62,056 nucleotides of DNA, filler included, from Stramenopiles sp. TOSAG23-6 (GCA_900128565.1; 15 parts of 15 records of this genome joined end to end with filler, not necessarily neighbours in it); one strand, 5' to 3'. Shown: positions 13,133 to 41,344, counted from the whole stretch's first letter. Program-made: numbers and translations. The notes: generated by a model from the letters alone, not told the origin.

Positions 13133-16100
13133 ATGTCGCGTAAACAATTGGATTTCGCCGTAGTTGGTGCAGCTCTTGGCTCAGTTACAAATGATGCAAC
13201 TTCTGCCCATCAGGGAGGTAGTCAAGTTACTGCTTCGCCAGTTGACATAGATAGTAATACAGTTTCGTTAGATGGAGATACTGCCAATACTAATATATTA
13301 GATGTAAGTTCGTCTTTCCACCATAGAGATGATGTATACTATTACCGACGTGACCCCCCACTAAGTGCCTCCGAGAAAATGCTTTGTCGAGCTCAGTGGC
13401 TACGTTGGGTCAACTTTGTTGCCCAACGTAAAGTTGAATGGTCTCAACTCATTCGAGCTAATAGTCATTATGAGTATATCATATATAGAAGTTACTGGCG
13501 ACGCTGGATAATTTATTTACGCTGGTGGAGGGAAAATCAAAAGCATAGACGTCGTCTTTTACTTTGGGCGGAGGACAATGCGGTTAATATGTCCCAAAAA
13601 GTCGTGAAACGACGTTATTTTTTACGTCTCGCCCAAGCCGTTCATAACTCTCATATAAAATCTAGAAATAATATAAAAGCATTACAACATTGGGCTAATC
13701 ATCTGTGCCGTTCAATCTTTAGAAAGTGGCAGGNTTGTGTTACCAAAAGTTTGGAAGAAATTCATAAATCAGATGTTCTCCAAACAAATCATGACATTCG
13801 ACATAAACGTCTATTTATGAATATTTGGCGTGAATCATTTTTCAGTATATTAAAACGACGTAAGCAAAATAAAGCAGCATTTTGGCATAGATATAATACA
13901 ATTATGAACAAAACACTGTGCCAATGGCGTGAATATGTAAATTATAAAAAATATTATCAACAACTAGATAGAACTGCAACGATACATTATAAAATATCTC
14001 TGCTTCGATATACTTTTTCATGTCTTAGCCAAGGCATCAGAAAGAAACGCGCAATACAATGTATTGCTAATCGTGTTCGCTGTTGGATGAGATATGTACG
14101 TTTTCATTATAAATTTCAATTTTATTTTTTTCATACGAAATTTTGTACCTAACAAAAACTTTTGAGTGTGTTTTTTTTTTTCACAATACATGTATCTTTA
14201 TTGAATGCATTTATAACTTGGTCAGTTAATATAAAAAAGAAATTTCTTTTGACAACTCTGCAAAATATGGAAAATAGAATTATTATTAGACGAAAACAAG
14301 ATGTATTCCATACATGGTACGAATATTATAAGGAACAGCAATTGGAGTCAACTGCGAAAACCTTTTATAGCTGTAGGCGTAAGTACGTTTTCAAATTGAA
14401 TGTTTTACATCATTTTGTTTTTCATACGAAATTTCGTACCTAACGAATTTTTTGAACAAAAATAAAAAATATTTTTTCACAGTACAAACGTCAATGTTTA
14501 CGGGCCCTTCATTTTTATACAAAGAAAATACAACATAATGCCATGCAAATGAGATTAGCTGAAGTATATAGACGTAGAGCTTTACTTGGTGGAGCAATGA
14601 TTTTATGGCGAGTATGTATGTTTTAGGTTTTTTTCAATTTCGATTTTTTTTTCATACGAAATTTTACACCTAACGATTTTTTTTTGAAATATTTTTCCAA
14701 AATACATTTGTTTGTCGATGTACTTCTCCAGAAATAGATTCTAATTGTCAGAATATTCCCATGACTGATGACTATGAAAAAATGAATAAAAAGAAGAGCA
14801 TTAATAGAGATTTACTAATGAAAGTGAAGGTATCAGAAAAAAATATTCCTGGAAAAAATAAACAAACGCTCAAAGCAAGTTATATTAACACTTGGGATGA
14901 AATCCGTCAGAAGCAAAACATGACTGAAAGATTGTGTTATCGCAATCTCCTTCGACGCATCTTCAAACATTGGCAGATTGGTGCTGAGTGCTCTAAAGTA
15001 GATAGGCGTCGGATGTTGCAAGCTGAAGGACATGTACGTTTTCAAAAACCAATTTGGAATTTACTTGTTTTCATACGAAATTTTGTACCTAACAAAAAAA
15101 ATCGGAAAAAAAATATTTTCCGACAATACATTTTCATTTACGTCGGCTCTCGAAGGCATTAATTTCATGGCAGTATTGGAACAAAACAAGGCAGAAAAAA
15201 AATCTTTTGAAAAAACAGGCCATTAAACAATACCAGTATCATTTACTTGTTCAAACTTTACAAAGATGTACGNTTTANTTTTTTTTTNAANAAAAAAATC
15301 GAATTTATTTTCATACGAAATTTTGTACCTAACAAATTTTAGTTTTTTTGTTTTGAAATATTTTTTCATTATCCATGGAGATCTGCTGTAAAATTTATGA
15401 AGAGTCAATCTCAAATGATTTCTCTTGCCACTGAACATCATTATTGGTATCATGCTAATGTTAGATTTCGTCAATGGAGAGTCTGGGCAGCGAAACGGGT
15501 GATGAATCATCAGGAAAATCAACGTGCATACTCAATGTGGCGCAAAAACACTATCCATAGATATATTGATTTTTGGTACAATTATACAATTGCTAGACTG
15601 TCTCAACAAAAAGAGGAAACAAAACAATTAGAATGGGCTCAAGGTATACTTTTAAATAAACGTATATTCCGTATATTCTCTGCTTGGGCAGAGTGGAATC
15701 GCCATAGATTAGTAAAGAACGTTGCAAAAACAAGAGCAAATAGATACTTTGAAACGCGATTAAAAAAAAAGGTTTGGATCACGTGGCAGCTTTTTGTTTC
15801 CTCAATATTAGCGAGTAAATTGAGATTAGTACAATCCAAAAGGCTATGGAAAGTAAATGCACAAAAACGAGGTTTTGTGTGTCTACAAAAATATGTTTCT
15901 ATGCGCAAATCGATGCGATTCTGTCGCGAAAAGTCTAAGAAATTTCATATTTTGAATACACTGAATAAAGCTTTCTCTGGATGGAAACATCGAATAGAAC
16001 TGTGTCATTGGCAATTTGCTAGAGAGAGAGATGCACTAATGCGACGACGTCGTGCTTTACGGGAAGAAGGGGCGCGGCGTTGGTTGAGCTGGGGTCTCAG

Positions 16101-16570
16101 TCAGCGGACGAAGCGCCTTGTCCAGTCGATGGATACACAGTCTCATGTACTTCCGATAAATAAACCTTTGATTTCCCCTGATGGCACAAAAACTATTCAA
16201 TTAACCGACGGACGTACCATCTCTTATACGCTGTGGTTGTTTATTTTTAAATGTTTACGTAAATGGCGACGTCGTACATTATTGAAAAGGTCTACAATGA
16301 AAAAAATCCCATTAGAGATGCATAATTCAATGACTACATTTGATAGCACAAATATTTTTCAAATTGAAACTAAAATGAACCCGAAATCGAATTTTCATAC
16401 AGGACACAATCCTGATAGGAAACTATCCCATTTAAATATAATGCCTATACTACATAGTAGGAGCGATGCTTTGTCAGTAATACAATCACAAACAGAGTCA
16501 AAGATGAATACATTTTCATCTAAAAACAAATTAGATGCTGGAACAAATCAGACACAAGAGGAAATTTTGT
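13133..16570 (+). CDS. SFI1-like Trp-repeat (centrin-binding-type) protein, 3'-partial; introns 14096-14191, 14383-14487, 14616-14707, 15034-15131, 15268-15376
   Basis: Recurrent A..H....L....F..W units. Removing the five repeats gives one continuous frame. Confidence 0.75.
14096..14191 (+). mobile_element. Introner-like element / GT-AT intron
   Basis: TAT|GTACGTTTT...CACAATACAT|GTA. Confidence 0.85.
14383..14487 (+). mobile_element. Introner-like element / GT-AA intron with AA duplication
   Basis: CGT AA|GTACGTTTT...CACAGTACAA|A CGT gives RKRQCLR. Confidence 0.75.
14616..14707 (+). mobile_element. Introner-like element / GT-AT intron (phase 1)
   Basis: GTA T|GTATGTTTT...CCAAAATACAT|TT GTT. 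Confidence 0.8.
15034..15131 (+). mobile_element. Introner-like element / GT-AT intron
   Basis: CAT|GTACGTTTT...GACAATACAT|TTT. Confidence 0.8.
15268..15376 (+). mobile_element. Introner-like element / GT-AT intron
   Basis: AGA T|GTACG...CATTATCCAT|GG AGA restores the RWR Trp of the repeat. Confidence 0.8.
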
Positions 16571-16747
16571 NNNNNNNNNNNNNNNNNNNNNNNNNNNNNN
16601 NNNNNNNNNNNNNNTTAATTAATTAANNNNNNNNNNNNNNNNNNNNNNNNNNNNNNNNNNNNNNNNNNNNAAACAAATTGAAAAAAAAGAAAAGATTTTG
16701 CATTCTTCAATAAATTAATAATTTTTATGCATTGATAACTAATATTT

Positions 16748-19700
16748 TTATAAAAGATGCCTTATATCATCTGTGGGCCAGGGACTCAATGGGGGTACTT
16801 TTGTTCCTGACCATATCTTATTAATATTTTTATTATGCTTTGCATATTTTCTCGATTTTCTCCTTCGAGACACTTTCTTCTTCAATTTCATTTTCTTACT
16901 ATTGAACCCAGAGTTTTCTTTCCAATCAGTTTCAGTCATAGTCTCTTCTTCACCAGGTAAATGATCTTCAACAGGATTACTTTGTATTGTATCACTAAGT
17001 AGAGCGTTCCATGTATTGTGGGGAAATATTTTAAAATTTTGAGAATCGTTAGCTATAAAATTTGGTACAAACAAAATTGGAGTACAATTCAAAAGAACGA
17101 ACGTACATTCTTCTTCATCGGCAGTTGATTTTTCTAAAACGCTCACTTTCAAATCCCAATACGATTTCGATGTTGAATCATTATTAACTGTAGCATCTTG
17201 TATATTAGTAGCATGTAGATTATTGACGTTATCTGTATACATCTGTCGAATCAACTGAGCTTGTTTTTCCACTTTCAATTTATATTTCTCAGCTTGCTTC
17301 AACAATTTTTTTTCATAAAATATCTTTAGCTCATTGTTTTGCTTCTCCCTATCAGAAAGTTTTGTTTTATTCCGCCGTAAAGCGAGTAAAACATTCTTCT
17401 CTTTCGAAGCGGCAGCAATCAATGGACTCAATGATTTTACAGCTGAAGATGAATGTATTTTGGAAAAATATTTGAAAAAAAAATCGTTAGGTACAAAATT
17501 TTTATAAAAAAAAATGTTCGAATTTGAAAAAAAAAAAAAAACATACATGTATTTGTTGATTACCTTTGTCCTTGGAGATATCTTTTTCAGATATTTCATA
17601 ATTTGAAGAATTTGCCAGCCGTTGAACTGCAACAGAAATTGTATTTTCGTGTTCATTTTTAAGATTTTTTTTGCGTAAATTACGTATCGTTTGTTCATCA
17701 TCAAGTTTTTGATTATGTAATTCTTGAATCATGTTTTTATCTATCAAAGATTGATTGTGCAAATCTTGAAAGTCGCGAAGAATCGTAGATTTTTCATCAG
17801 TGTATTTTTTCTTTAATTTGGTCTCTAATTCAATTTTCATTTTTTCGCATTCCCTTTCAAGTTTTATGTCAAATTCATTTTTCATTATTTTACGTTCTCT
17901 TTCAAATTTCGATTTCAATCTAAATTCAACTGTCTTTACATTGTCTTCTTTAACTTTGTCTTCTTGAGAACGGATTTTCGAAAGAGTTGCTGCATTTTCC
18001 TTTGTTGTGATCAACGTAGACTTAACATGGTTCAATTCCTTTGTTAATTCTCTAATATCCTTCACATGTTGCTCAGCCATCTCTTGAGTCTCTTTTCTGT
18101 GGTTCATGTATAGTGAAAAATATTTTTTTTTACGAAAAAAAATGATTAGGTACAAAACAATTTTACGAAAAAAAAAAAAAAATGATTAGGTACAAAAAAG
18201 GTTTTACAAAAAACAAATTTGGAATGAATAATAAAAACTTACATAGATAAACAGTCAATTACTTCAGAAAATTTTGCTTCCGCATCTGTTTGAATCTGTG
18301 ACGATCTGTCATCCATCTTTTGATTAATTTCGCGCAATCGATTTGACTCATCAATTAAAATTTGCATGTATTTTGGAAAAATATTTCAAAAAAAAAATCG
18401 TTAGGTACAAACTTTCGTACGAAAAATAAATTCGAAATTGAAAAAAAAAAAAAACATACATGTCTTCTTTATGTTTTCGCTGGATTTGCTCAATAATACC
18501 TTCCATGTCTCCACCGTTTTTACGTGTCATTTTTTTTATATACTGTTTGTGTTCTTCAATTGTCGCTAAATATTTTTGTTCTTGCTCATCCACTGCATTT
18601 TCATGCTTCTTCAACAATGCATCATACTGAGATTGCCAATACTGCGCCGCATCTCTAGCGATCTTAATTTCTTTTGTATGTAATTCTATTGTATCAGAAA
18701 CTGCTGCTGCTTTATCACGCTCAAAAAACGTTTTCATTTTATCATTTTCTACTTGAAAAGCTTGACTTAATTTTTCTTTCTCATCAGCAAAAGATGAATG
18801 CATATCCTCCTTTTCACGCGTAATTTGCTCGCAATGCCTCTTTAAGTGTGAATATTTTGTTTCTAATTCATTCATCCTTACCTCAAACATTTTCAAAGAT
18901 TTCGCAGAGTTTTCATCTACGTGTTTTTTTATTTCAAATGCATATACTTTTTCTTTTTCACGTATTTGAATTTTGTGTATTTCTCTCAATTCTGATAAAT
19001 CGTTCAAGTACTCTTCAGATTCTATTTTCTGGTAATGTTTAGTTTCACTTAATTGATTTTCTTTATGCCGTACATCAGCCATAATTGATTTCAATTCTAA
19101 TTCATGTTCCTCTTTCAATGTAGCTTCAGTTTCTCTTAGATCATTTCGAAATTTATCATTAACACACTGGATTTCACTTTTATATTTTTCATGAAGCTTT
19201 GAAATTTCAAGTTTTCGTTTATTTTCTATATCTGCACATTTTTCCATTTGAGATTCCAATGATTCCTCTAAAATTTGTATATTACTATTACCCAAGCGAA
19301 GATTTTCTTCAAAATCTAAGATTTCTTGTTTGAGATTATGAATAATTGTTTCATTTTCTTTTGTCATTTTCTTCAATTTATTTGCGTCTTCCTCTTCAGA
19401 GAGTACATGTATTGTAAAAAAAAATAAATTCGAAATATGTTAGGTACAAAATTTCGTACGAAAAAAAAAATTTGAAATTCATAATGAAAACACACTTTTC
19501 TCAATGCAGAAATCTCACTATTTAGTTTTTTTCTATCTGTTTCGAAGTCACGAGCAAGAATTTGTAATTCTTCATCATGTTCTTTTTGTATATTTGTGAC
19601 TTCGTTTCTGTGAATTTTATTGACTTCTTCATATTGAGCATTGATTGTTTCCTCACATTCGATTTTCCATTCTGTAACTTGTTTTTCATGATTTTTCATA

Positions 19701-20553: not shown

Positions 20554-21064
20554 CTAAGTAGTTGCTACCAGTTGTAAAACGTGGTTCACTTTCCAGAAAC
20601 CCGAGTACAGTGCAGCTGTCAGAGTCTTTGAATTTATAAATCCCCAAGACTTCTTGCCCAGCTTTGAAGCCCTTACAGTCTTTAACCCGGCTTTCTGGCA
20701 AAGGCTGACAAACATTCACGATTACGNNNNNNNNNNNNNNNNNNNNNNNNNNNNNNNNNNNNNNNNNNNNTTAATTAATTAANNNNNNNNNNNNNNNNNN
20801 NNNNNNNNNNNNNNNNNNNNNNNNNNGTATTTTGGAAAAATATTTCAAAAAAAAAAATATCGTTAGGAACAAAATTCCGTACGAAAAAAAAAATTATTTA
20901 CTAAAAGAAAAAAAAAAAAAAAAACATTGAATTTTTAATTTTTTTTTTTTTTTTAATTTTTTTTTTTGATTTTTTATAATAATAATGATGATAATAATAT
21001 AAATCCTTCCGAGTAAATCTGAAGCTGTAAAGAATAAATACAGAAATCATATTTTATTAATTTA

Positions 21065-24000
21065 TTTCTTAAAGCATATATTCATCGCGCAAAGCATTAG
21101 CTAAATAATCAACCTTCAATTGCTCTTCGATATCTTCAAAATAAACAAATTCCATCTTTTGTATTTTGGAAAAATATTGCAAAAGAAAAAAATTTTAATT
21201 TGTTAGGTACAAAATTTCGTATGAAAAATAAATTCAATTTCAAAATTAAAAAAAAAAATAAAACATACATCATTCTCTAAAAATTGAATACGTTGCTGCA
21301 ATGCGCTAAGCGTAGCATCACATGTATTGTGAAAACATATTTAAAAAAAATTGTTAGGTACGAAATTTCGTATGAAAAAAAAATAAATTAGAAATTCATA
21401 TCAAACGTACATTCTCTATTGAAATGTTCCCAATGGCACGAAGAGCAAATTTAAAGACATCTTCGTCATAGTCTAATGTTTTTAAAGCTTCAAGCAATCG
21501 GCTTCCACATGCTTCATATACCTGTTCACGATAATCACCCTTTCCTTCTTCAGCAACCCAATTAGAAATTGTGTTTAATTGTTGTGAAAAAATATTTTTG
21601 TGTATAAAAATTTGTTAGGTACGAAATTTACTATGAAAAAAAAATCGAAATTGAAAAAAAATAAAACATACAATGTGGTGGCAACAACTTGTGTGATCAA
21701 TGGAAATGCCAGTAAAACTTGATCCAGTACTTTCTCGCCATTATATTTTGCTGCAAGTTCAACATTTGGACGACAACTAAATGTTAATTTGTTTATGATT
21801 GCTAGCATACGCATAATCAACTTATGATACTCACACAGACCTCGTTCCGCAATCTCTTTTATCGAATTTCGACGAGCTCGACAAGCTGGAGGCGTCCAAG
21901 AAATATCAGATGTTTCTTCATTATAATAATATTTGCGACCATTGTTAGAGTCGAATTTGACAACCCAAGATGTTCTTTCTACACTTTTCCTCGTGGGTGT
22001 TGGAGGTTTTACTGATGTCTTGGTCTTCGTTTCTACATTTTCGTAGCATTCCTTTTTAGTCTCGGGATCGTTGACAATTCGCCATCCTGCGGGGATGCCT
22101 TCACCACGCATTACTCGTTTAGGATGAGTATGAAAAGTGATTATTGCTAATAAAACTTCCATTGCACCAGCTTCACCAACACGTTGTTTCATTATATCAT
22201 GATCAGAAAATCGTTCCAGTAATAGTAATAATCTGTATAAAATATTGTCATTATCCATGTTTTCTCGGATAAGTTTCAAAACAGTAACTAATCCACCTTT
22301 TTCAATCATATGATCAAGATTATTTTGGTCCTTACCCATGAATGCAAGAACTTCTGAAACCGATGTAATAATATCTGGATCTTTAGCGGCTGCAGCTAGT
22401 AACTGCAAGGCAGCATGAATCACTTCAGGTTTTACAGAAGCCGATTGACCGTCATAGCTTTCAATAAGTCCTGCCTGGGCATTTAATGATTGCACAGCTT
22501 TACGATATTGAGCAAAATTGGAAGATGAAGTATCTGATCCTTCCGTCCAACATAAATTACCGGAATCGGCATCCATCATATCAAATACCAGGCCTGGAAG
22601 ATCATCGATGGCACGAAATACAAGTTCTTCTGATGAGAGTAAACCTGGAAAAGCCGACAACATTGCATTTAATAATTGCTTCCCTTTCTGTCGAACAACA
22701 ACATCATCATCCCAATTATGTACAAGATTATCAACTGATTTCACTGAAGTTTCATTAAGACCATGCGGTTTTAAATATGACATTTTTTCTTCTGTTGGAG
22801 AATCCATGTATTCAGGTGTAACTAAAGAGTGAAGTAGTTGTGTAGTTTCTTGACAATATTTTCGATCATTTATTCGATCTCCCTTGTCAATGGCAGAACA
22901 AACACCACCGAATACACCGACATCTAGAAGTGACTGACGTAAATCAGATGATGAAATATCATCAATGGACGCACCAGCTATTTTACGCAATACCGTACAA
23001 GCGGCACTTGCTGTAATAGAACAATCTTGATTCATAATATTCACAAGACTAACGAGAAATTCTGGATTTTTTGCTAGCAATGTAACTGCGTCGGTATCTG
23101 CTGCAGTAACAAATGCATCAAGTAATTGTCTTCGAGTTTTTACAAGTCGAGCGTGTTCTTCACTTCCACGGACTAAGTTACAAGCTTCTGGATCAGGATG
23201 TGAGGAAAATAATTCAGCCCATACATTCAATAACATATCAGTACTTGATGTAATGGAAATAGATCCATCCACATCTTTTGTAGCAATATCATTTGATAGA
23301 ACTCCAATTATTTGATCAATTAACATTTCGGATTTTACTGCATTTTTTTCACCCTCAATTTCATCTGACACAAGTTGTGAAGTAGCCATATGACATAGAA
23401 TGTTTCTCATTCTTTCATTTCCATCTTTCCTTTTCCGAACAAAAGACAATAACGCCTTTGTTGAATCTTGATGAACATTTACAAATGCATCGACAGCAGG
23501 TAATAATAAAGTCTCTCCATCACGTTTATTTTGATCAAGATCATCTAAAACACGTGATAGCAAAGATTCTGACACAGAAATACGTTCATCCGTACCAACT
23601 TTACCACTAGCAAAGCTACTCGATCCAACAAACTTCAATAGATCTTCCATCTTTGAACTAGATCGTAAAAAATTCCAGATTGCATCATTCGACACAGCAG
23701 TAGGTATCCCATGAAGAGCTGCAAGTTGACTACTTGACAGTGTACTTGCATCACCTCGCATTGCGGTGGTTAATACTAATTCCGCTGATGTTTCTGTAAA
23801 TGTGCCAAGTGCTGCTAATTTTGAAAGAATCTGTGTGGCATGTATTTTGGAAAAATATTTCAAAAAAAAAAATATCGTTAGGTACAAAATTCCGTACGAA
23901 AAAAAAATTATTTACTAAAAGAAAAAAAAAAATAAAAACATACATGTATCGTGATAGAATCGCGATCTGCTTTATCAGCAACGTCTAATGCCAGAAATTC

Positions 24001-24879
24001 AAGTTTCATTGCAACAGTGCATAATTCATTTGCAGTATCTTTTTCAATAAAACTCTCTTCATTCATTGCAAGGCAATTAGAAGCAACAGCGAGCTCAGAT
24101 TGCAACTGTTTCATATTGGCAAGACGAGGTACAGCAGATTGATAGACACTTCTATCCAAATCTATTTGTGGAGACTCAGCACTACATCCACGACGAGACT
24201 CCCAAGCATCTGTCATCCTTGAAATATTACACACAGACTGTTTGAGAATTTCTTTCGGGCTAAGTAAAAACGCCAATGCTTTCCCACACACATCACGGAC
24301 CTTTTTATTACTTTGGTGAGTTGCCATGATGTATTTTGGAAAAATATTTCAAAAAAAAAAAAGTAAAATTTGTTAGGTACAAAATTTTTATAAAAAAAAA
24401 AATCAAATTTGAAAAAAATAAAACATACATATCATTTAACATTTCCGTAACCTTACATGTCCGTAATTCATCACGAAAAGATTCACTCGAAGCTAAACAT
24501 TCCATCAAGCTTGCTACCGAAAAACAGGATTTGGGATTAGACAAATGTGAAGTTTCACCATAAAATGTGAAAAATATATATTTTGTTTTTGAATTCGATA
24601 AGTACAAAAATTTCTATTAAAAAAAAAAAAAAATTGTATTAAAAAAAAAAAAAAAGTGAATGGAAACAACATACATCTTTTGATGAGAAAAGTGAAATTA
24701 TACGTGACAAATGACCAGAGCTTAGTAAAGATTCAGCGGCCTCAGATGAAGTTTTCACAATCGCTGTACAAAATGAAGAGCATGGATTATGAAAAAATAT
24801 TTCAAATTTAAAAAAAATCGTTAGGTACGAAATTTTGTATGAAAAAAAAATTAAATTAGAAATTCATATAAAACATACA
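21065..24879 (-). CDS. Armadillo/HEAT-repeat protein with two WW domains (5'-partial); introns 24782-24878, 24560-24674, 24329-24428, 23840-23943, 21577-21671, 21322-21410, 21159-21268
   Basis: ARM-like helices (MIEKGGLVTVLKLI, VGEAGAMEVLL); WW motifs IPAGWRIVND.. and WVVKFDSNNGRKYYYNEETSDISWTPP; frame restored by repeat removal. Confidence 0.7.
21159..21268 (-). mobile_element. Introner-like element / GT-AA intron
   Basis: GAT|GTATGTTTT...CCAAAATACAA|AAG ATG. Confidence 0.65.
21322..21410 (-). mobile_element. Introner-like element / GT-AT intron
   Basis: AAT|GTACGTTT...CACAATACAT|GTG. Confidence 0.8.
21577..21671 (-). mobile_element. Introner-like element / GT-TT intron with TT duplication
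   Basis: ACA TT|GTATGTTTT...CACAACAATT|A AAC ACA gives TTLNTISNW; the 1-nt shorter AT-ending option hits a stop. Confidence 0.7.
23840..23943 (-). mobile_element. Introner-like element / GT-AT intron
   Basis: CAT|GTATGTTTT...CCAAAATACAT|GCC. Confidence 0.85.
24329..24428 (-). mobile_element. Introner-like element / GT-AT intron
   Basis: GAT AT|GTATGTTTT...CCAAAATACAT|C ATG. Confidence 0.85.
24560..24674 (-). mobile_element. Diverged introner-like element / GT-AT intron
   Basis: GAT|GTATGTTGTTT...CACATTTTAT|GGT GAA. Confidence 0.7.
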
Positions 24880-25067: not shown

Positions 25068-26958
25068 ATTCCCATATCAGCAGATTTTTCATTATCTTTT
25101 TTTTCTATACCATCTTGATCTATTCCTGATGCTCTAGAACTATTTGATAATGTACTATGCAGAGCATCTTCATCTTCAGTGGCATATGCATCAATTAATG
25201 CAGAAACACAATATGTATTGTGAAAGAATATATTTTGTTTTATAAAATTTGTTAGGTACAAAATTTACTATAAAAAAAAAAACATAAATTCAAAATTGAA
25301 AAAAACATACATGCAGCATCCGCAGCTGATATTGCACTGCCGTAACCTTTAAGAGAATGTCGATGAAATGAAGAATAAAAAGGATTTTCTAAACCGAAAT
25401 CGTGTGCGACAGCTTCTAACTGAGCTCTTAATCGTCGCTTAAGTTTAGAACTCATAAAACTGAATTTTTGTTTACATGCTGCAAGTGGGATTCCTGTCTT
25501 TGCAAGACATTGCTCCAACTTTGCACGACCTTCAGATGTCCAAATTGCCAGTTTTGTCGCAATATAATCCGAATATAACATATATTGTAAAACAAAAATA
25601 TATCAAATTGAAATCGTTAGATTTTTTTATCATTGCAAAAATTGAAATCATAAGAATTCGAATAGGTTTTAAAAAAAAAATGAATAATACATTTGAAAAA
25701 AACTTGAAAAAAAAAAAATAAATTAGAAATTCATAATGAAAACATACATTGAATCATAAAGAGACCAATGCCTATGAAGCATGAATTTATACTCATTCTC
25801 TTCAAAAACTATCCGTCCATGCTCAGCTGCTTTAACAACTGTACCATCTTCTACAGTTAATTCTGTAGCACTTAGAGCATTCTTAGTATTGACTTCTTGT
25901 TGATAGTCAGTGACGAGCTCTATATACGCATTTCGTGTCATGTTTTGATTTAGATACTGATGTGTTACTCCTACTACAGCGTACCACAATAAATCATTGT
26001 TAACATTATTCATTTGTTGTGCCAAGATGTATGCCAAAGAGGCTGCAGGCATACCTTGTGACGCAAGGGTACCACCAGAATAGTACATGTATTTTCAAAA
26101 AATATTTCAAAAATTTGGAATTCGTTAGGTACGAAATATTGTATGAAAAATAAACAAAAATGAAATGAATATATGCAAACATACTCTGAAAGTTTTTCTC
26201 TCCTTGCACGCTTCATCTTTCTAGGACCTAAGACATCCTTGCTACCATTTTCTGTTTTCCTTCGCTTTCGGCTGTTTTCATCAAAGTTTTCATCGTCACT
26301 CATATCTGATTCATCTTCACTTTGACTATTTGGATCTAAATCAATATCTGAACCATCACTAGGAAGATCTCGGAGTTGTAAAGTACCATCATTAAATACT
26401 ACCACACTTTTCCCTTCTGTGTAAATGTTGGCCAGATGAACAGGACGATGGCTATCAAGTACAAAACAACTGATTCGACGGGGAAGACTGAGGATTTCAT
26501 GTAAGTTTACAACTCCACCACAGTTTAACATGATAATTGAACGAAGTTCATCGCTATCTTTTATAAATTGTTCATTCAAATGCCGAAGATCTCCTAAACC
26601 ACAGACTGGCATTATTTTGTACTGTATATTATCACCTTTTAGTAATGCCTGTATTGTTTGCGTATAATAAAGAACTCTATTAGTATTATTTGGTTGGTCA
26701 AAATGTGCTTAAATCCAACTCCAAAGAAAAAAAAAAGAATACCAAAAAAAAAAAGACAGTGAAAACACCAAAGAGAAACATATGACACATCATTTACTAT
26801 TCATTTGCATAAATACTACATACCCTGAGAATACGGCAAGCGCAAAGTGCGTCGCAGTCAGAAGCCACACATATTAGAACTGTGCAGCCACCACTATCTC
26901 TGGCATTACGTAAAATTTGTTTATAGGCCTTTTGAAAATTGGGTTTATCAAAAAGCAT
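25068..26958 (-). CDS. CDC45: DNA replication initiation factor CDC45 (3'-partial); introns 26649-26823 (GT-AG), 26087-26184, 25580-25747, 25213-25310 (GT-AT)
   Basis: DCDALCACRIL, LNCGG, LDSHRPVHLANI, LLWYAVVGVT, FMLHRHWSLYDSM|LYS, ISAADAA|YCVSAL. Confidence 0.95.
25213..25310 (-). mobile_element. Introner-like element / GT-AT intron (CDC45)
   Basis: GCA T|GTATGTTTT...CACAATACAT|AT TGT. Confidence 0.85.
25580..25747 (-). mobile_element. Introner-like element / GT-AT intron (CDC45)
   Basis: TCA AT|GTATGTTTT...TACAATATAT|G TTA TAT restores HWSLYDSMLYS. Confidence 0.9.
26087..26184 (-). mobile_element. Introner-like element / GT-AT intron (CDC45; 5' flank GA)
   Basis: TCA GA|GTATGTTTG...GAAAATACAT|G TAC TAT gives SEYYSGG. 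Confidence 0.8.
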
Positions 26959-29140: not shown

Positions 29141-29176
<36 letters not shown>

Positions 29177-30011: not shown

Positions 30012-30462
30012 CAGTCAGTCAAAATTACAGTACTATATAAATGTCTCCGACGAGCAGTTATTCTAGCGGTCAGAAGTTTCTGAAAATCCCAAAAAATCCC
30101 AAAAAATCCAAAATGCTTTACTTTACGTATGAAATTTTGGTACAGATTCAATATTGGACAGGAGATTTTTTTGCTTTTTCGAATTCTATAGGAAAAAAAA
30201 AAGAGTACCGGGTAACAATGCTGAAAAAAAAAATCTTTTTTTTTCTCATCAAGCGCAAAGATCAAAAATGATGACCACACCACACCAACAAACAATATAT
30301 GTACATAAACACATCCATAATAATACAAGTATAAGATTACTGAATTTCAAAGACGTATTCTACTATAGTATTGATTTCAATTGTGTTATATATCAGTATT
30401 GTCAACTATTCGCGCAAAATTGTATTTTGTAAACAGTCTAGTATACATTTAAATATATTGTA

Positions 30463-32282
30463 ATGTCGCGTCATCGTGACGTTCGTAATCGAACATATAG
30501 TTACGAACCAGATGAGGCCATTGATCATTTTCACTTGGCAGATGATTTTCAAGAACCGTATTCACCAACCACTGGGGCATTTATATACAATAGAAATAAC
30601 AATCCTAGCGCATTCTCATTGAATGAAGAATTGCGTGTTGATCCAACTGATGGGAATGCATACACAAAAAAAGAGTTCATTACTGAATACGGAGGAACTT
30701 TTGAGTGGGATGATGCGCTGCCTTTAGTTCGTGAAAGCACAACCACCACATCTTCTCACCATGGGAGAAATCAACAAAAAGATGAAGATTTGTGGGAAGC
30801 AATGCAAAAACAACAATTGTTAAAAAAGAAGAATAAGAAAAAAGCAAAAAATAAAACTAAAAAGGGAACTGAATTCTCAAAAGTCTCAAACGTCTCAAAA
30901 ATCTCAAAAGTTTCGCCGCCTCCAATTCCTTCCACTACTTCATTACAGCAACAACATGCAATATGTACAAAGCATTCAAAATCAAAAAACAAATCAGTGG
31001 TACATAATACGATACAATCCAATGGTGTGCAATATTCACTGTATCGAAAAAACCCTAACCCTAATGAAACTTTTTTGGAATTGGAACAAAAATCGAATCC
31101 TACTCGTCAACACAGTCAACATCATAACCCTAAGCCTAATACTATTTCAAACCCTAACCCTACACTACATAGTCATATGATTGATCAATCTTCAATACAA
31201 AATGAAATTTCAATTGAACAAGTTCAAAAAGAAATACAAAAGTCTAAAGATAGAAAAAAGAAATGGTTAAAAATGCAACAAAACAATTCTCAACATTCTC
31301 AACATTCTCAACAACAAAATCAAAATATTGTCAATCACACAGATCTCGCTAACCCTAATCCTAACCCTACATCATCCACCCTACAAAACCTACAAAACCT
31401 ACAAAACCCTAACCACCAGAATGAAAAACATGAAACAAAAAACACGAATTCGAAAACACTTTCAACGCAACAACAAAACCCTAACCCTAACCAACAAAAC
31501 AAAAATAATAGTCAAAACATAAAATCGAAACATTTCAAAGAATCATCTAAAAAAAAAATGGAAAAACAAAATATTATTCATAGAAAAATTAAAAGAAAAG
31601 GAAAAATGCGTTTAGTGATGGTTGTTGTTGGTCATGTTGACGCCGGTAAGAGTACAGTCATGTACGTTGTTTTTTTATACGAAATTTTGTACCTAAACAA
31701 AATTTTTTTTTTTTTACTACGAAATTTTCATAGAAAACAAAAAAACAAAAAAGTTTTTTTTTTTTTTTCAAATTTTTTTTAATTTTTTTTTTTCATACGA
31801 AATGTCGTACCTAACAATGTTTTTTTTTTGTGATTTCGTGTTTTTTTACAACACATGGGTCATCTTTTATATGATTTAAAGCAAGTAAGTCAAAAACAAA
31901 TGCGAAGATTTGAAAAAGATTCGAAATTTTTAGGAAAATCATCATTTGCGTTTGCTTGGGTCCTGGATGAAAATATTGCTGAGCGTGAACGTGGGGTAAC
32001 AATGTATGTTTTATTTTTTTTTTTTTCTGGTAAAAAAAAAATCGATTTTTTTTTTTTGGTTTTCGTACGAAATTCCGTACCTAACAAAAAAAAAAAAAAA
32101 AAAAAAAAAAATTGCACAATACATTGATGTTGGATTTAATCATTTTGAAACACGAAATCGACACGTGACTGTACTGGATGCTCCCGGGCATCGAGATTTT
32201 ATACCAAATATGATACGTGGTGCAGCACAAGCAGATGTGGCTGTTTTAGTTGTGTCAGCATCCAAAGGAGAATTTGAAGCAG
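30463..32282 (+). CDS. HBS1: HBS1-like translational GTPase (EF1A superfamily), N-terminal part; introns 31662-31856 and 32004-32124
   Basis: MSRHRDVR N-terminus; [75 protein letters not shown]. Confidence 0.9.
31662..31856 (+). mobile_element. Introner-like element / GT-AT intron immediately after the HBS1 P-loop
   Basis: GTC AT|GTACGTT...TACAACACAT|G GGT CAT gives GKSTVMGHLLY. Confidence 0.92.
32004..32124 (+). mobile_element. Introner-like element / GT-AT intron in the HBS1 switch-I motif
   Basis: ACA AT|GTATGTTTT...CACAATACAT|T GAT GTT gives ERERGVTIDVG. Confidence 0.92.
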
Positions 32283-32318
32283 GTATGTGTTTTTTTTTTT
32301 TTTTTTTTTTTTTAATTT

Positions 32319-32355
<37 letters not shown>

Positions 32356-32416
32356 AAACTAAAAAAAAAAAAAAAACTAAAAAAAAAAAATTTTGAAATA
32401 TTTTTCCAAAATACAT

Positions 32417-33071
32417 CTTGGTCGATTACTTCCTTTAGTGCGAAACGAATCTGTATTACAAGCACCACTACCTACTGATGCAAACTTAGACTTATTTTCT
32501 GCAGGATCACCACTACGAGCAGCAACTGCGTCGCGAGGAACTGCGGTGGTTGTTAATAACCTTTCTGCTATTCTTCGCCGTGCATGTATGTTTTATTTTT
32601 TTTTTTTACCGAAAAATATTTCAAAATTTTTTTTTTGGTATGAAATTTTCATAGAAAACAATTTTTTTTTTTTGAAACTAAAAAACTAAAAAAACTAAAA
32701 AACTAAAAAAAAAAAAAAACTAAAAAGAAAAAAATTTTGAAATATTTTTCCAAAATACATGTTTTCTAACACTTAGTGAACGCCGATCCCCAGAAGCAAT
32801 GGCGCATATGATACCTGAATGGTTCACGTATAATAATATATGTATGTTTGATTTTTTTTCAATTAGGGTTAGGGTTAGGGTTAGGGTCTACATATTTTTT
32901 TTTTTTTGTACCTAACAATTTTTTTTAGATTTTGTTTTTTTTGAAATATTTTTCCAAAATACATACAAAAGTGACACAGAAAGTAAGAATTGTTTAGCAT
33001 CGGAAATTGTGATACTTTTTCGAAGATTGAGTCGCTCTCCGTTGTGGCGTCAACCTTTAGCTGTATTATTT
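32417..33071 (+). CDS. Internal exons of an unidentified protein that is not HBS1; introners 32586-32760, 32842-32964 and from 33072
   Basis: LGRLLPLVRNESVLQ...LRRAC|FLTLSERRSPEAMAHMIPEWF...; frame continues across repeat removals. Confidence 0.5.
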
Positions 33072-33360
33072 GTATGTTTTATTTGAATTTCTAATTTAAT
33101 TTTTTTTTTTTTTCATACGAAATTTCGTACCTAACAAATTTTTTTAGATTTTTTTTGAAATATNNNNNNNNNNNNNNNNNNNNNNNNNNNNNNNNNNNNN
33201 NNNNNNNTTAATTAATTAANNNNNNNNNNNNNNNNNNNNNNNNNNNNNNNNNNNNNNNNNNNNAGATGGAAATTGTACTATAAAATAATTTAAAACAATT
33301 AAAAAAACAATTTTTAATTTATTTCTCATCTTATCGAAAATAATGTTTAGTTGTGACAAA

Positions 33361-34404: not shown

Positions 34405-35982
34405 TATCTTCNACTGNTCATTCTTTATTAGGATGTGTACANATTGATTTGTACTTGTAAAGTTAGAAAGATAAGATAACAAGTTGTATGTAAATGATAA
34501 TGTGTTTGTTTGCAATGTTTTATATCCCCGCTACTAAAGTGGCCTTCGTTCGTAGTACTCAAAGGTACGAGTGACGAGAATATAGCGATGAGATGACACG
34601 TGTTGGTTTGACATTTTGAACACGAAATCTCTCGATTTCAATGTAAAAAATATGAATATGAAACACGTACAAATTTTTATTTTTCAATAATAATTGACAA
34701 TATCAAGGTACAAAAGAACACAAATTTTCGAGGACNAATTGTACGCGCATATACTACACTACATAGCCGTTATAGGCTAGTAGCCTATACCATTTAAAAA
34801 AAAAACACGAAAAATGGGGCAGTTCAATGTCTATATATAATTCAAGAAGTCACGCGCATGAGCCCTAACCCCTAACCCTAATTCTATATACCTTTGCATG
34901 AGNCAGTTGCAGCGGTTNACTCGTCTTCNAATAGTATCGTCTAACACTACACCCGGTATGTTTTGCTNATCCGCAATTATAATTCAGAATGTATATTAGG
35001 TAAAACAATTCCATGCACTTTTGCGTAAAGAACGAAAGGCTACACAAAATAAAGAATGAAAANTGTTTCACAGATTTGTTTATTTCATTTGCTCTTTACT
35101 ATTATAAAAATTAGGTAGAGTCTTTGTATTTGTTTTTCTATGCCATGAATATGTCGACATGGCAGACGAAGACATTGACATGTGTATANTCTCTGCTATA
35201 GGGCGTTTTTCCATATGAAGTCGTCCACCTAAAATCCTCGAAATAATCTTACCGTCACGTTGACCGTCCTTACCAATACGACTAATTTGTTGTAGGTTCC
35301 CACCAATCTTTGCCACCTTTTCGGCAATTTGTACTACAATCTGAGAAGTCTTTAGGGGGACTGACATACTATATAGTGTTGTTTTGTGTTGATATTGTGA
35401 AATAGTCTAGATTTCTTCAGAAATTCTCTATACTTTCTGTCGTAGTACAACAACACACACTTACTTGTTTTCGTGAAAAAAGCCACGCGTCAAAAAAATC
35501 AAAAATTTTGGCCACGAGTCACTCAAGAAATTTTAAATTCAAAACAGTCAGCGTGGAAAGATTTTTGTACCATTTTTTCATATATAAAATTTAAACTCTT
35601 TTGACTTCAAGCGAGTTCATCTAATCGGCCTCGAGGTCATCTTTCTTCTCCGTTGTTTCGCTGTGTTTAAATAAAATTGAAACTTCGCCGAGTGAATATG
35701 ACGGATGATGCAGGCATTGAAATTCATCCCAAGAGCGCCAATCCCGGTGCGGATCACCAGGTACGTAGCATNGTATTGTATTTACGCAAATAAGTGTCGT
35801 ATATTTTTGTTTTTGTAACACTTTTAAAGTTATTTTCACAGTACTTACTAGAATCATTTTCTTGTTTCTCGTTTATAGTAACGAAAGTTTGCAAAACCCT
35901 TTGATATTATGAATATTTTACTCATTTTCTCTTTCATTTATAAATATTTCATTAAATATAGGCAGCACTTGGACTTTTAAAC

Positions 35983-37240
35983 TTGTTCTCGTCACCTGCA
36001 TCAGATTCTCCGGAGCGAGACTCCAAAAGTACCGATGGGTCAACTCCCCCTTTATTAGTATCAGATTCTGCGAATGCTACTCCAAGTCCTGGAACATCAC
36101 CAGATTCTAGATCAAGTAGTATTACTCCACCTAAAAAGAATGCGAGTATCACACCAAATATTGATACTCAAGCTTGTCCGCCAAAACCCGTGTGCGTCAC
36201 GACGCAAAACGACCTACACNAATATANTNCACAGAATGTCGTATTAAATGACACGTGCGCGACTGATCCTACAGTCTCTCAGACAACAAAACAAAGTGCG
36301 ACGGAAACATTGAACCATTCAAATGATTCTCACATGCCGCATTTAGGTTCCAACGATTCAAATATGCCAAATGTAGGTATGTTTCAAACACAAAAATTGG
36401 TAGATAACCCTAATGTCAATGGTGTCAATTTACAACAAATATTTGAAAACTCTCAACGAACAAACTTAACACCAATAGCTGACCAAGAAGTGGCCCACTT
36501 CGATAAAATGCCTCCCAGACCATTTACAAACACATTTCAAAACCAACATCCAATGGAATATGCATCAATGAATGGAATACCAAATGTTGCAACAAGTTTT
36601 ATTCCAGTTCTGAATCAGAATTCCATGAACGGAAATTCCATGAGTTTTAATAATGCGAACCAACCCCCTACAAATTTTAATCCTCAATTTCCATTTTCAT
36701 CTTTTCCAAATGGAAGTATGATACATCCAACTAATGGGAATATGATTAATCCCATCATGATGCAACACCTCTTGAACCAAAATATAAATCCAAATTTTAT
36801 GCCTGTTCCAACCAAGATGCCAAATATGCCAAATGTAGATGTTGATCTTAGTAGATTGTGTTCATCGTTACCATCCTCATGCTTTAAGTCGCCTTTGCCT
36901 TTGAATGAAAACAGTCAAAATGCTCATAATGTAACATATCCTTTCCATGTATTACAATCTTCACAACTAAATAGCCCAATGAAACAATTTTCTCCAACAC
37001 AAACTCCTATACAAATTCCGAGTTTGTGTCCACAATCAACAAAACATGTATGTTCCATGTTTTTTGAAATTTTTTTGAAATTTTTTTGTAAAAATTTTTT
37101 TTTTTTATTTTTTACTAAATATGTTTTTTTTTTTAAATATTTTTCTACAATACAAGAGTTCCGAGCAATGGGTGCTTTGAGTAGTCTTAGAAACACAAAC
37201 TGGGCACAAGTAAAAGGAGGGCTTTCTGGTCTTGGTAGTA
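35983..37240 (+). CDS. Low-complexity N/P/Q/S-rich protein (start uncertain, 3'-partial); introner 37048-~37155 and another from 37241
   Basis: Long ORF containing family repeats. Confidence 0.55.
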
Positions 37241-37395
37241 TGTATGTTTTATTTTTTTTTTTTAAATTTGAAATTCAAATTTTTTTTTTCGTACGNNNNN
37301 NNNNNNNNNNNNNNNNNNNNNNNNNNNNNNNNNNNNNNNTTAATTAATTAANNNNNNNNNNNNNNNNNNNNNNNNNNNNNNNNNNNNNNNNNNNN

Positions 37396-38892
37396 ACACG
37401 ACTCATATGCGCGTCCAGAAGAACAATAATAATTACCATGATCTTCGCTGATTGGGCTTATTTCTGGATATCCTCCACATTGCACACACAAATTAGTAGT
37501 GATAAAATCTAGATTAATAAAATGTACACGTTTAAAACCTGGGCTACATTTATCACCATCACATGCAAGACATCGTTTATCTGTACTTTTTTTTGAAGAA
37601 CAAAAAGTGCCGTCTTCTGTAGCTTCTGTAGTTCCTCCACATGGCTTGCAATACTCCTTCTCACTACCATCACCAGTAGTAGTATGAGTATCCAAAGTAT
37701 AACCTGGGTTACATTTATTACCACCTTCACATGGTTTACAGTAATTACCAATTGGATGGTCAAAACAAAATGAATGACTTTTAGTAGAATCGGCTGGATG
37801 TCCTCCACATGCTTCGCAATAGGAATTCAATATTCCCTTGTCCACATCTTCTTGGATTTTGAAAAAACCTCGGTTACATGTACCCTCATCACCACTATCA
37901 ACACCACATGGTTGACATCGAGGATCTTAAGTATACCCATTGTTACAAATATCACCTTCACATGGTGCACATTTAGAATTCCCAAAAGTCCTGCTGCAAA
38001 GTGTATGATCATCGCCATCCGGTAATCCTCCACAAGATGGTGCTGGTACTGGTGCTGGTACTGGTACTGGTGCTGGTTCTGCTTCTGCTGTTGTTGTTGC
38101 CGCTATTGCATCTGGTGTTGGTGTTGTTGGTGGTGGTGTTGGTGGTGGTGGTGTTGGAAGACATTGACCATCACTACATATTTCATTTATCTTACAATCT
38201 CCACATAGATCATTAGTACGTAATGCATTAGTTGTAGTATTGTTTGTTTTTGTTGATGATTTGTTATAAAAAAGACCAAAATAAATACCACAACCAATAC
38301 CAACCAATAATAAAATACCTAAAAGTATTTTACAATAACCAGCAATAGCACAACCATTCGCACTACGGTAGCTACAAGAGCCTGACGGACATAAAGTAGT
38401 TTTATTCTCTTTGTTGTTTTTTTTCTTTTTCTTTTGTTTTGAAGAAGAAGACGGCGAAGCTTTCGTTCCATTTACTCCATTTACTGAACCAACTTCAACA
38501 CAGTGTACACTTTTCTTATCTTTCTTATCTTTCTTATCTTTCTTGTTGGATAGATTGATCACAGGATTGACCTGTTTTGTTGTTGTCGTTGTTGTACTTG
38601 CTCCAACTTCAGTATCATTCTCATCATCATCAGCTTCATTGTATGTACGAAACCATTGAAATTGTTTATGTTTTTCTGGTTTTTCTGGTTTTTCTGTTGT
38701 TGTTGTTGTTGTACTTGCTCCAACTTCAACACCTTTGTTATCAGCTTGATTATACTCACAATATGTTTCAAAAGGATATGGTTGTACGGGTTGCTTATCT
38801 TTGTCTTTTGGATCTTCGGTAGTGTACATCGAATGTTTTGTCTTGTTTGTGTCGTTTGTTTCTTGTTGTTCTGAGTTTAGAAATGAAAACAT
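37396..38892 (-). CDS. Single-pass membrane protein with Cys-rich (CxxCGG) repeats; in-frame TAA at 37927-37929
   Basis: TM segment ILLGILLLVGIGCGIYFGLFY, P/T-rich stalk, repeats C.PC.G..CN.G[YF]; the frame continues past the stop. Confidence 0.6.
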
Positions 38893-39345
38893 ATTATTGA
38901 CAAGATTATTGACGATGTTTTGTTTTTTTAAGATGTTTTAGAGTACTTAGAGTATTGGCAATTATGATTGATTACCTATGGATGTCCTCTTTCAATTGAT
39001 ATATATAAAGTCTTTTTTTTATAGAAAAGTATATACTATATAAGTATGCACACAAATAAAGATTTCACAAATTTTCGTCGTGTAGGACGAATTCATGTAA
39101 AGTAACGTAAAAAATCTGAAAAAAAAAATCCAATTTAATATCGACTAAAAAAAAAAAAATCGATTTTGTAACCGTTTTTATGTTACAAACGTTTTGAAAA
39201 AATCGAATCTTCTATGAAGTACGTATTTGCCTATATACAAAAAAGACAAAAAGAACAAATTATAACAAAACTTTTGTATATCAAATTCTCTTTACATCGT
39301 TACTTCTTTATATCTTTGTAATACATCCAATACAACTTATAAACA

Positions 39346-41344
39346 ATGAAGAAACTTTTTGTGATAGATACTAAATATCATACAAAAGGAAAGGTAATTT
39401 TTGCTTGGCAAGGTGATGGCCATTTTCTTGCAACGTCAGGTGAAAATGGAATTGTTCACATCTTTGACCGACAAGGAAACGATGTGGATGAAATTGCTAT
39501 CCATGGAGATGTATGCACATCCTTAGAATGGGATAAAGATGGTCAATATTTAGCTGTTTTACAAAAAGGTAATGGCGTTGTTACCTTATGGAATCAATCC
39601 ACTCGAAGTATNCAAAAAATCGATACTAATTTAAAAAATCCGACATTTCTTTCTTGGTCCATAAACGGTCCTCAACTTGCTATTGGTACTGAAAAAGGGA
39701 ATTTATTATTATACAGAAAGGATACAAGACGGATGATACCTATATTAGGTAAACATACAAGACAAATATCATGTGGTTGTTGGTTATCGAATAATACATT
39801 AGCGTTAGGATCAGATGATGGGTCAGTTACGCTAAGCACATCGAATGGTGATACTTTGGATCATTTTGATGTTGGTGGACGTCCAGTGGCAATTCAATGT
39901 GTTGTACAAGACTCATCCTTAGGGTTGACACAAGACATTCAATCTACACAAAAAATAGATGAAAAAAAAGATTCTTTTGGTTCAGATTCAAGTGAAAATA
40001 ATACAGGAGTTGCAGTTACAATTGATTATAACAAAATAATGTTATATAAAGATTTAAGCCTAGGTAAGAAAGAGAAAAAAAGAAAACCAAAAGAAATTCA
40101 ATTTCAAAAACGTTATGGAGCAATTGTTAATTCTGTTTGGTATGCACAAAATTCTTTAATTGTCGCCTTTTCTAAAGGTACATTTTATTTATTTATTTTT
40201 TTTTGTATGAATTTGAATTTTTTTTTCATACGGAATTTCGTACCTAACAATTTTTTTTTTTTTTTTTTTTTTTTATTTTTTTTTTTTTTTTTTGTATGAG
40301 ATTTTTTTTTGTTTTTTTTCATACGAAATTTCGTACCTAATAAATTTTCAAAATTTTTAAAATTTTTTTCACAATATAGGATACACAATCATTGTCTCAA
40401 CAGAGGAGAATGACATTGGAACAGAACTGTTTTCATGGAAATTATTTGATGACCATTTGTATAACATTTGTTATAATACAAAATTAAAACGATTTGCTGC
40501 TCTTGGTGATGATTCATTGAAAATAATTGAATATAATGAAAATGAAAATATTTGGAAAAAAATATCAAATAATTCTATCCAATTAAAAAGTAAAAAATTT
40601 GGTACAGCAACTTCAATGTGTTTTTTTTTTTTTTTTCAATTTTTTTTTTTTTGTATGAATTTTTTTTTTTTTTTGAAAATTTTGTACCTAACAGATTTTC
40701 AAAATTTTTTTTGAAATATTTTTCCAAAATACATCGACTGGACAAATGATGGTCAGATTATTACACTTAGTACAAACACAGCCAATATTACATCATATGT
40801 TGCTACAATGTCAACTATAAATAGTACATTTGGTACAAAAATTTGTTATTGTTCATCATTACAAGAATTGGCTATTATTGACGTACGTTTTTAGTATGAA
40901 TTTTATTTTATTTTATTTTTTTTGTTTTTTGTTTTTTTTGTACGAAATTTTGTACCTAACAAAAAAAAAAAAAATATTTTTCACAAAATATGTACGACAA
41001 AACAATNNNNNNNNNNNNNNNNNNNNNNNNNNNNNNNNNNNNNNNNNNNNNNNNNNNNNNNNNNNNNNNNNNNNNNNNNNNNNNNNNNNNNNNNNNNNNN
41101 NNNNNNNNNNNNNNNNNNNNNNAATTTCGAAATTTTAAATTTTTTTTTTTTTTTTTTTTTTTGTACAACATTTTGTACCTAAACAACAAAAAAAAAATGA
41201 AATATTTGTTTACAATATTTGGGGTAGGAATGAATTCACATTTATGGTTTTATTATTGTACTAAAGGGGAATATAAGTTAGTGAGAGAGAGAGACTATCT
41301 TGGTACAGTTGAACATGTTTGTATTAGTACACAGTATGCAGCAG
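39346..41344 (+). CDS. WDR19: WD repeat protein 19 / IFT144 (3'-partial); introns 40178-40379 (GT-AG), 40618-40734 and 40883-40991 (GT-AT)
   Basis: MKKLF, FAWQGDGHFLA, LEWDKDG, QLAIGTEKGNLLLY....R.IPILGKHTRQI.CGCW, DWTNDGQ, VGMNSHLWFY, RDYLGTV. Confidence 0.9.
40178..40379 (+). mobile_element. Introner-like element forming a canonical GT-AG intron (AG duplication), duplicated core
   Basis: AAA G|GTACATTTT...CACAATATAG|GA TAC. Confidence 0.8.
40618..40734 (+). mobile_element. Introner-like element / GT-AT intron (WDR19)
   Basis: TCA AT|GTGTTTT...CCAAAATACAT|C GAC TGG gives SIDWTNDGQ. Confidence 0.85.
40883..40991 (+). mobile_element. Introner-like element / GT-AT intron (WDR19; 5' flank AC)
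   Basis: GAC|GTACGTTTT...CACAAAATAT|GTA CGA. Confidence 0.75.

Follow-up and report, generated by a model that had tools for sequence, protein, structure and literature searches.

We analysed a stretch of 62,056 nucleotides from the fragmentary assembly of Stramenopiles sp. TOSAG23-6 (GCA_900128565.1), hereafter the window, whose genes are interrupted by many copies of one short sequence family that resembles spliceosomal introns at its donor and branch site but ends, in most copies, in AT. The window is AT-rich (GC 29-38%) and consists of separate contigs of about 4.1 kb each, placed in descending order of length and chained by N44-TTAATTAATTAA-N44 linkers (window 4071-58032), so that two genes with a linker between them are not truly adjacent. 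Long open reading frames (ORFs) are open with standard stop codons, and a Pfam scan of 42 ORFs recovered proteins of the following kinds: INTS11-like, coatomer gamma, CDC45, HBS1-like GTPase, WDR19/IFT144, nucleoside transporter and GPN GTPase. The closest relatives of the WDR19 protein come from oomycetes and one ochrophyte (41-48% identity), and the conserved proteins of the window appear stramenopile-like from their sequences. Copies of the family sit in unrelated genes (INTS11-like, CDC45, HBS1-like, WDR19, nucleoside-transporter and others), and all 28 curated copies lie on the same strand as the reading frames that flank them.

From 5' to 3', the family comprises the donor GTAYGTTTT, a variable U-rich stretch, a block containing a palindrome and the branch site (TACGAAATTTYGTACCTAAC), a second U-rich stretch, CA(C/A)AATAC, and two final bases; copies are mostly 89-121 nt long. 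The branch-site motif, TACCTAAC, adjoins the palindrome, with 33-45 nt between the last CTAAC and the end of the intron. The 20-nt core block has 34 matches at no more than 3 mismatches, compared with 0.00 in 100 shuffles, and an nhmmer profile built from 20 copies picks up more degenerate copies, which align in register. At the donor, G1 and T2 are present in 28/28 copies, G5 in 26/28 and T6 in 27/27 called bases (one copy has an N). At the opposite end the last 16 positions contain no indels and AAUAC is nearly invariant; intron position -4 is A in 27/28 copies, position -3 is C in 24/28, and the A at -2 is retained in 27/28. A reading of the window made from the sequence alone, hereafter the sequence-only reading, had described the 3' ends of three of these copies as aligning base for base with the consensus. 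They do align in register, without indels in the last 16 positions, but their last ten bases differ from CACAATACAT, at two positions in the copy ending at 14487, three in the copy at 21577 and two in the copy ending at 40379. In the core block (for example 14425-14444), the part that precedes the branch site contains a palindrome of 14 nt without a mismatch (TACGAAATTTCGTA). The family intron at 32843-32964 (+) has four tandem TTAGGG telomere-like units where the core motif would be.

The 3' end was resolved in 38 copies (28 with both ends and 10 with the 3' end only), and the terminal dinucleotide is AT in 32 of them, AA in 3, TT in 2 and AG in 1; with 32 of 38 ends, AT rather than AG is therefore the default acceptor of the family. 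Where both ends are resolved (28 copies), the terminal dinucleotide co-varies with the two bases of the 5' flank. Flank and terminus are both AT in 18 copies, and the pairs AA/AA, TT/TT and AG/AG each occur once; two copies combine an AT flank with an AA end, and five combine a non-AT flank (AA, GA, AC, AC, CT) with an AT end. Flank and terminal dinucleotide are thus the same in 21/28 copies (p = 0.003 for at least 21 when ends are permuted among copies), and the three matches that involve a dinucleotide other than AT are themselves unexpected (permutation p = 0.0009 for at least 3). The 5' flank is AT in 20/28 copies. The flank position before it, -3, is variable (C 10, A 9, T 3, G 3; n = 25), whereas intron position -3 is C in most copies as given above, and for this reason we take the duplication to be 2 bp and not 3. 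The first base after the junction, +1, is G in 15/25, so that the target context reads (C/A)AT|G. A cut-and-paste element that duplicates 2 bp of its target, with a preference for AT, would be expected to leave co-variation of this kind between flank and terminus.

Removal of the copies as GT...NN introns is consistent with the coding potential of their hosts. With the 3' end set at the family register (shift 0) and the longest upstream frame joined to the downstream frame, the frame is kept in 25 of 27 testable copies; one further copy meets a gap of Ns. Three junctions at AT are residue-exact with respect to solved Hbs1l and CDC45 chains. When the HBS1-like GTPase is aligned with Hbs1l chain 5lzw_jj, the exon before the double copy at 31662-31856 (+; AT|GT...AT) extends to residue 302, the split codon is 303 and the next exon covers 304-351; at the second junction, that of 32004-32124 (+; AT|GT...AT), the exon ends at 351, the split codon is 352 and the following exon covers 353-404. 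In CDC45, compared with chain 8q6o_P, the exon before the degenerate AT|GT...AT copy at 25580-25747 (-) ends at residue 290 and residue 4 of the next exon corresponds to 295; the split codon then falls on 291, and the frame is kept. MAFFT alignment of WDR19 homologues shows no gap across 40178-40379, and none from the junction onward at 40618-40734 (+; AT|GT...AT; frame kept). In a gene that we label Sfi1-like, four removals, including one copy ending in AA, produce a single ORF (13124-15268).

The coordinates that the sequence-only reading gave for copies not ending in AT are all correct, including those of AA|GT...AA at 14383-14487, TT|GT...TT at 21577-21671 and AG|GT...AG at 40178-40379. 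The TT copy (- strand) interrupts an ARM/WW-domain gene in which 746 codons are open upstream and 59 downstream at shift 0, and it has no AG within about 30 nt. Homologues of the ARM/WW protein were obtained by HMMER from 1.84 billion representatives, and the BLAST alignments across the junction are gapless in P0030, P0042 and P0047. Sixteen homologues cover the junction; when eight in-frame acceptors were compared against them, shift 0 was uniquely best in 12, tied in 2 and lost in 2, and the two homologues that disfavour it prefer +9, an AT site. At the level of sequence, this copy is the strongest evidence for use of an end that is neither AG nor AT; a TG...AT register here would yield an identical mRNA. 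The other TT end belongs to a copy in WDR19 of which only the 3' part, 41151-41220 (+), is present, the rest falling in a gap of Ns; the Pfam match to the second WDR19 propeller starts at the first codon past this copy. The AG copy (+ strand), a double copy with two core motifs in WDR19/IFT144, is gapless against homologues; homology confirms it, yet it is simply a canonical GT-AG intron.

For the AA copy at 14383-14487 (+) the support comes from the reading frame of the Sfi1-like repeat gene. No shift other than 0 (mod 3) keeps ORF 13124-15268 open, and neither the closest AG (-5) nor the closest AT (+8) is in frame with the GTACGT donor or with an overlapping GTAAGT donor 3 nt upstream. Shift 0 also keeps the length of the host's repeat of about 32 residues, which weakly favours it; AA is a plausible acceptor at 14487. 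The host region (13124-16570, +) encodes a long protein whose tryptophan-centred repeats recur about every 32 residues and are reminiscent of Sfi1 centrin-binding repeats; Pfam returned no match to it.

Two further copies end in AA, as the sequence-only reading had stated for 21159-21268 (-) and proposed tentatively for 37048-37155 (+), but both have an AT flank. The first is followed by an in-frame AAG (21156-21158) and the second, which is degenerate and lacks the core, by an in-frame GAG (37156-37158). The host ORF of the second (35962-37347), in which Pfam has no match, also reads through the copy. An in-frame AG at +2/+3 occurs in only these two of the 28 copies, and the frequency of NAG codons is 4.0% (266/6613). 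The counter-case that the sequence-only reading had raised against itself, splicing at these neighbouring AGs, fits both, and they most likely use AAG| and GAG| 3 nt on. Its central proposal, that the acceptor follows the target-site duplication, is therefore upheld only in part. The co-variation (p = 0.0009) and the TT copy (12/16 homologues) speak for it, the AA end at 14487 is plausible and the AG case is trivial; the two AT-flank copies ending in AA are not duplication matches, and the five copies that end in AT despite a different flank had been left out.

Taking these observations together, we consider it probable that the copies represent one short non-autonomous DNA-transposon family that acts as a spliceosomal intron (an introner), with ends set by a 2-bp duplication. 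Each copy would bring its own donor GTAYGT, a palindrome with a yeast-like branch site (TACCTAAC), a U-tract and the 3' end CA(C/A)AATAC, and its insertion would duplicate 2 bp of the target, usually AT in (C/A)AT|G. The piece of RNA cut out would be the element plus the downstream duplicate; the intron would therefore start with GT and end in the duplicated dinucleotide (AT by default, TT, AA or AG elsewhere), and splicing would therefore be seamless. We infer from the sequences both a transposon origin of the family and a major spliceosome that tolerates a last base other than G and cuts two bases past the conserved AAUAC.

How such a spliceosome would find its site is a separate question, for which we can offer only a tentative answer, one we regard as possible but short of likely. 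The major spliceosome of this organism may work without reading AG, the cut being fixed two bases past the transposon-supplied AAUAC, which might pair with the complementary GUAU of the intron's 5' end as a dock; a transposon that duplicates 2 bp could then give rise to a seamless intron at any dinucleotide, and GT...AT would be the main intron class. The absence of indels in the last 16 positions and the near-invariant AAUAC speak for such a position rule, but the copies are young and related, and these features may reflect descent and not constraint. A spliceosome that reads A at -2 and is indifferent at -1 would explain all copies but the TT copy equally well. The suggestion of the sequence-only reading that RNA structure might set the acceptor is not supported by folding, as five copies fold no better than shuffles (z-scores -1.36, +0.55, -1.00, +0.14 and -1.29). 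The sole recurrent feature, seen in 2/5 minimum-energy folds, is a 4-bp GUAY/RUAC pairing of the ends that leaves the last two bases free. Intron bases 1-5 (GUACG) can also pair with CGUAC of the palindrome block in 2/5 minimum-energy folds, and in a third with a G-U pair. Overall, the interpretation given by the sequence-only reading is partly supported.

U12-type introns have a flexible 3' dinucleotide, with the site set largely by its distance from the branch point, and are distinguished by the donor RTATCCTT and a branch point 10-15 nt from the 3' end. In the present family the donor is GTAYGTTTT and CTAAC lies 33-45 nt from the 3' end; the position of the branch motif and the GTAYGT donor thus argue, as sequence features, against U12-type splicing.

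Several observations weigh against the introner interpretation and the acceptor rule attached to it. All counts come from a single 62-kb stretch of a fragmentary assembly, and N base calls are scattered in its contigs. The inverted terminal repeat is short, as only GTAY/RTAC (4 nt) is clearly inverted at the copy ends, and Pfam found no transposase domain among the 42 ORFs of the window. Two copies do not fit in frame. At 21322-21410 (-; AT/AT) the frame is broken at shift 0 and open only at -1 or +2, and at 41747-41847 (-; CT/AT) shift 0 makes a TGA at the junction and the exon chain needs -2, which would be GT...AC; both deviations may be genuine, or may stem from miscalled bases or indels in an assembly of poor quality. 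No homology reaches 21322-21410 or 21159-21268, which lie among the C-terminal exons of the ARM/WW gene, and the exons around 41747-41847 have no Pfam homology (exons 2-4 of the nucleoside-transporter gene are without a Pfam match). That the AT-flank copies with an AA end have an in-frame AG at +3 gives a hint that AA serves poorly as an acceptor. One contig looks chimeric at a copy: past the HBS1-like exon, 32283-32700 may represent a chimeric join through a family copy or a truncated gene. Finally, five copies end in AT after another flank (19407, AA; 26087, GA; 40883, AC; 41747, CT; 42149, AC), and these would need later mutations in the exon, or else AT would be part of the element. The discordant flanks are mostly one change from AT, and the two AC flanks are, as read from the sequence, synonymous third-position changes; later drift of the exon would be a sufficient explanation of all five.

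A rival account would hold that the acceptor is a fixed AT (or AG) and that the non-AT copies use a neighbouring AG or AT, are retained, lie in dying genes or are base-call errors. The two AT-flank copies ending in AA are the cases that suit it best, being the only 2/28 with an in-frame AG at +2/+3 against a background of 4.0% NAG codons, and it draws further on the A at -2 in 27/28 copies, on the scattered N base calls and on the two AT-ending copies with frame trouble. It accounts poorly for the TT copy, which lacks an AG for about 30 nt and is placed best by shift 0 in 12/16 homologues and by +9 in only 2, and for 14383-14487, where neither the AG at -5 nor the AT at +8 fits the frame from any of the two donors. 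Error in base calling would in addition have to strike twice, coincidentally, in each of the three copies in which flank and terminus match, and we think this account unlikely as a whole. An improbable alternative moves the register two bases to the left, so that the donor and not the acceptor varies: AT...AC introns, similar to U2-type AT-AC introns, with AA...AC, AG...AT and TT...AA variants. A first-A/last-C pair can support splicing. For the 18 AT/AT copies this register predicts the same mRNA as GT...AT, a further point against our preferred register, and it would provide a constant 3' end, AC (C at -3 in 24/28, A at -4 in 27/28); Fritillaria borealis is described as using AG-AC and AG-AT introns (PMC11282704). 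Yet GT is present in 28/28 copies within a full GTAYGT donor consensus, and an AT flank in only 20/28 is too loose for a splice dinucleotide. To our knowledge, moreover, /ATGTAY matches no known donor consensus, which speaks against the AT...AC register.

The remaining alternatives concern the element itself. The AA/AA, TT/TT and AG/AG pairs could be mutational coincidences, if an AT at each end belonged to the element's own inverted repeat (ATGTA...TACAT) and insertion duplicated no 2 bp of target. ATGTAY and RTACAT are indeed inverse complements, and five flanks and two termini have drifted independently; we nevertheless hold it to be highly unlikely, because it requires three double changes to the same bases among 28 copies (permutation p = 0.0009), and because seamless removal at conserved Hbs1l and CDC45 residues requires that the original exon held exactly one AT. 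Hardly credible, in our estimate, is removal at the DNA level in the manner of ciliate internal eliminated sequences, with 2-bp pointers and no need of an acceptor. The copies do resemble such sequences in being short, AT-rich elements within coding sequence, bounded by a 2-bp direct repeat of which one copy is left after removal. Their orientation, however, is not independent of the host frame (28/28 curated copies on its strand), a strong donor, a branch site and a U-tract are conserved, and the long ORFs are open with standard stops, unlike those of many ciliates.

The preferred reading, an introner family with ends set by a 2-bp duplication, has partial precedents. Like the introners of Micromonas and Aureococcus, the family is a multi-copy, short, sense-oriented element in coding exons in which the target-site duplication is co-opted for seamless excision. 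Those introners are reported to use canonical splice motifs (PMC7789003), whereas the present family ends in AT by default and owes its last two intron bases to the duplication. The introners of Amoebophrya are presented in the same source as similar to miniature inverted-repeat transposable elements (MITEs), with variable direct repeats of 3-5 nt over the exon/intron boundaries and boundary dinucleotides that are not fixed (PMC7789003); according to its account, inverted repeats of 8-20 nt form hairpins, a clear donor/acceptor signature is absent, and U1 was not found (PMC7789003). The present family differs in its conventional donor and branch site, in that only its last one or two bases are free, and in the lack of a significant hairpin; in the five folds we saw no extended pairing of the ends of the Amoebophrya or euglenid hairpin type. 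Fritillaria borealis has MITE-derived AG-AC/AG-AT introns with a duplication and inverted terminal repeats, and its major spliceosome is described as tolerating non-AG ends, including AT, in a review that also treats the non-conventional introns of euglenids (PMC11282704). Fritillaria is a chordate with a non-canonical AG donor, unlike the GT donor and stramenopile-like proteins found here. Among transposons, the ISL2EU group of PHIS elements is described as making a 2-bp AT duplication at the target A|AT|T and as having inverted repeats that usually start with GG (PMC4482050). The AT duplication is the point of likeness (18/28 copies here are AT/AT); the target here is (C/A)|AT|G, the ends are GTA...TAC, and no transposase was seen in the window.

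Introns born of transposons, with boundaries over variable direct repeats, are thus already known from several groups, and the present family differs from them in that its donor, branch site and U-tract are all conventional while its acceptor, AT by default, would come from a 2-bp duplication. A GT-AT introner family is not described in the open-access literature searched (main texts). Few signals in eukaryotic gene expression are as constant as the AG acceptor, and the exceptions in Fritillaria, Amoebophrya and euglenids also have unconventional donors or hairpins, so that they are hard to interpret. If the present interpretation is true, the family would provide a clean natural system for asking how the second splicing step picks its site, and how a relaxed acceptor lets a transposon spread harmlessly through coding sequence. 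In such a genome, most genes would be annotated wrongly by gene finders that require AG.

The other copies with both ends resolved fit the same scheme to varying degrees. In CDC45, the GA|GT...AT copy at 26087-26184 (-) joins 174 codons upstream to 120 downstream at shift 0; the PDB alignment begins 10 residues into the next exon, and the junction is accordingly not residue-exact. The AT|GT...AT copy at 25213-25310 (-) in the same gene is supported by frame, and the exon after it has no PDB match. The INTS11-like gene contains an AT|GT...AT copy at 6531-6626 (-) with 305 codons open upstream and 326 downstream at shift 0; its junction could not be placed against PDB chains, as the flanking region holds an insertion. 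An AC|GT...AT copy in WDR19 (40883-40991, +) lies 15 nt upstream of the start of an N gap. Another, in the nucleoside-transporter gene (42149-42267, -), joins 172 codons upstream to 35 downstream at shift 0, and here the difference between AC and AT in the flank is a synonymous third position (CAC/CAT), read from the sequence. The AA|GT...AT copy at 19407-19495 (-) has 238 codons open upstream and 351 downstream at shift 0. The flank of 41747-41847 gives CT|GT...AT and that of 21322-21410 AT|GT...AT, these being the two copies with the frame misfits described above.

AT|GT...AT copies supported by frame are found at 14096-14191, 14616-14707 and 15034-15131 on the + strand and at 17011-17106, 17453-17546, 18366-18459 and 41954-42055 on the - strand, and 18106-18242 (-) is of the form AT|GTAAGT...AT and is likewise supported by frame. 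The AT|GT...AT copy at 15268-15376 (+), with N base calls inside, has 397 codons open downstream at shift 0; that at 23840-23943 (-) has 135 upstream and 754 downstream, and at 45753-45852 (+) the frame is ambiguous but compatible. An AG|GT...AT candidate at 32283-32416 was dropped, as the sequence downstream does not resemble a GTPase and may have been joined on in a chimeric contig; past the end of the HBS1-like exon at 32282, the next open frame within 32283-32700 (+) is not GTPase-like. In the coatomer-gamma intron at 8774-8935 (+), whose last bases are ACAG, a complete core motif is accompanied by a partial one. This intron fits a canonical GT...AG reading or, in the family register, as GT|GT...GT, with an identical mRNA either way; the latter reading would add one more match between flank and terminus.

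Many contigs of the window start or stop within family copies. The last three (49785-53808, 53909-57932 and 58033-62056), which carry a COG5 gene and its neighbours, are identical at 4024/4024 positions and are probably one contig entered three times. Rfam has no match anywhere in the window. Protein and metagenome-contig searches found no near-identical proteins or transcripts: the 722-aa exon, and its last 199 aa alone, had no homologue matches as protein queries, and the only related loci among metagenome contigs were five distant WW-domain loci (L001-L005). The core motif had 0 matches in viral contigs and 1 in genome contigs, in a Bacteroidales metagenome-assembled genome (L006), which is likely a chance match. 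The sequencing runs that matched contig 20827-24879 were all seawater metatranscriptomes, with 5-13% of the words sampled from the contig, a result that says nothing on habitat or expression.

Among other coding regions of the window, those at 4119-4922 (+) and 47739-49013 (-) each encode a protein in which Sel1 repeats occur together with a MYND zinc finger at the C-terminus. The ORF at 43354-44649 (+) encodes a response-regulator receiver domain (a weak match, below the Pfam cut-off) together with a bacteriorhodopsin-like domain.

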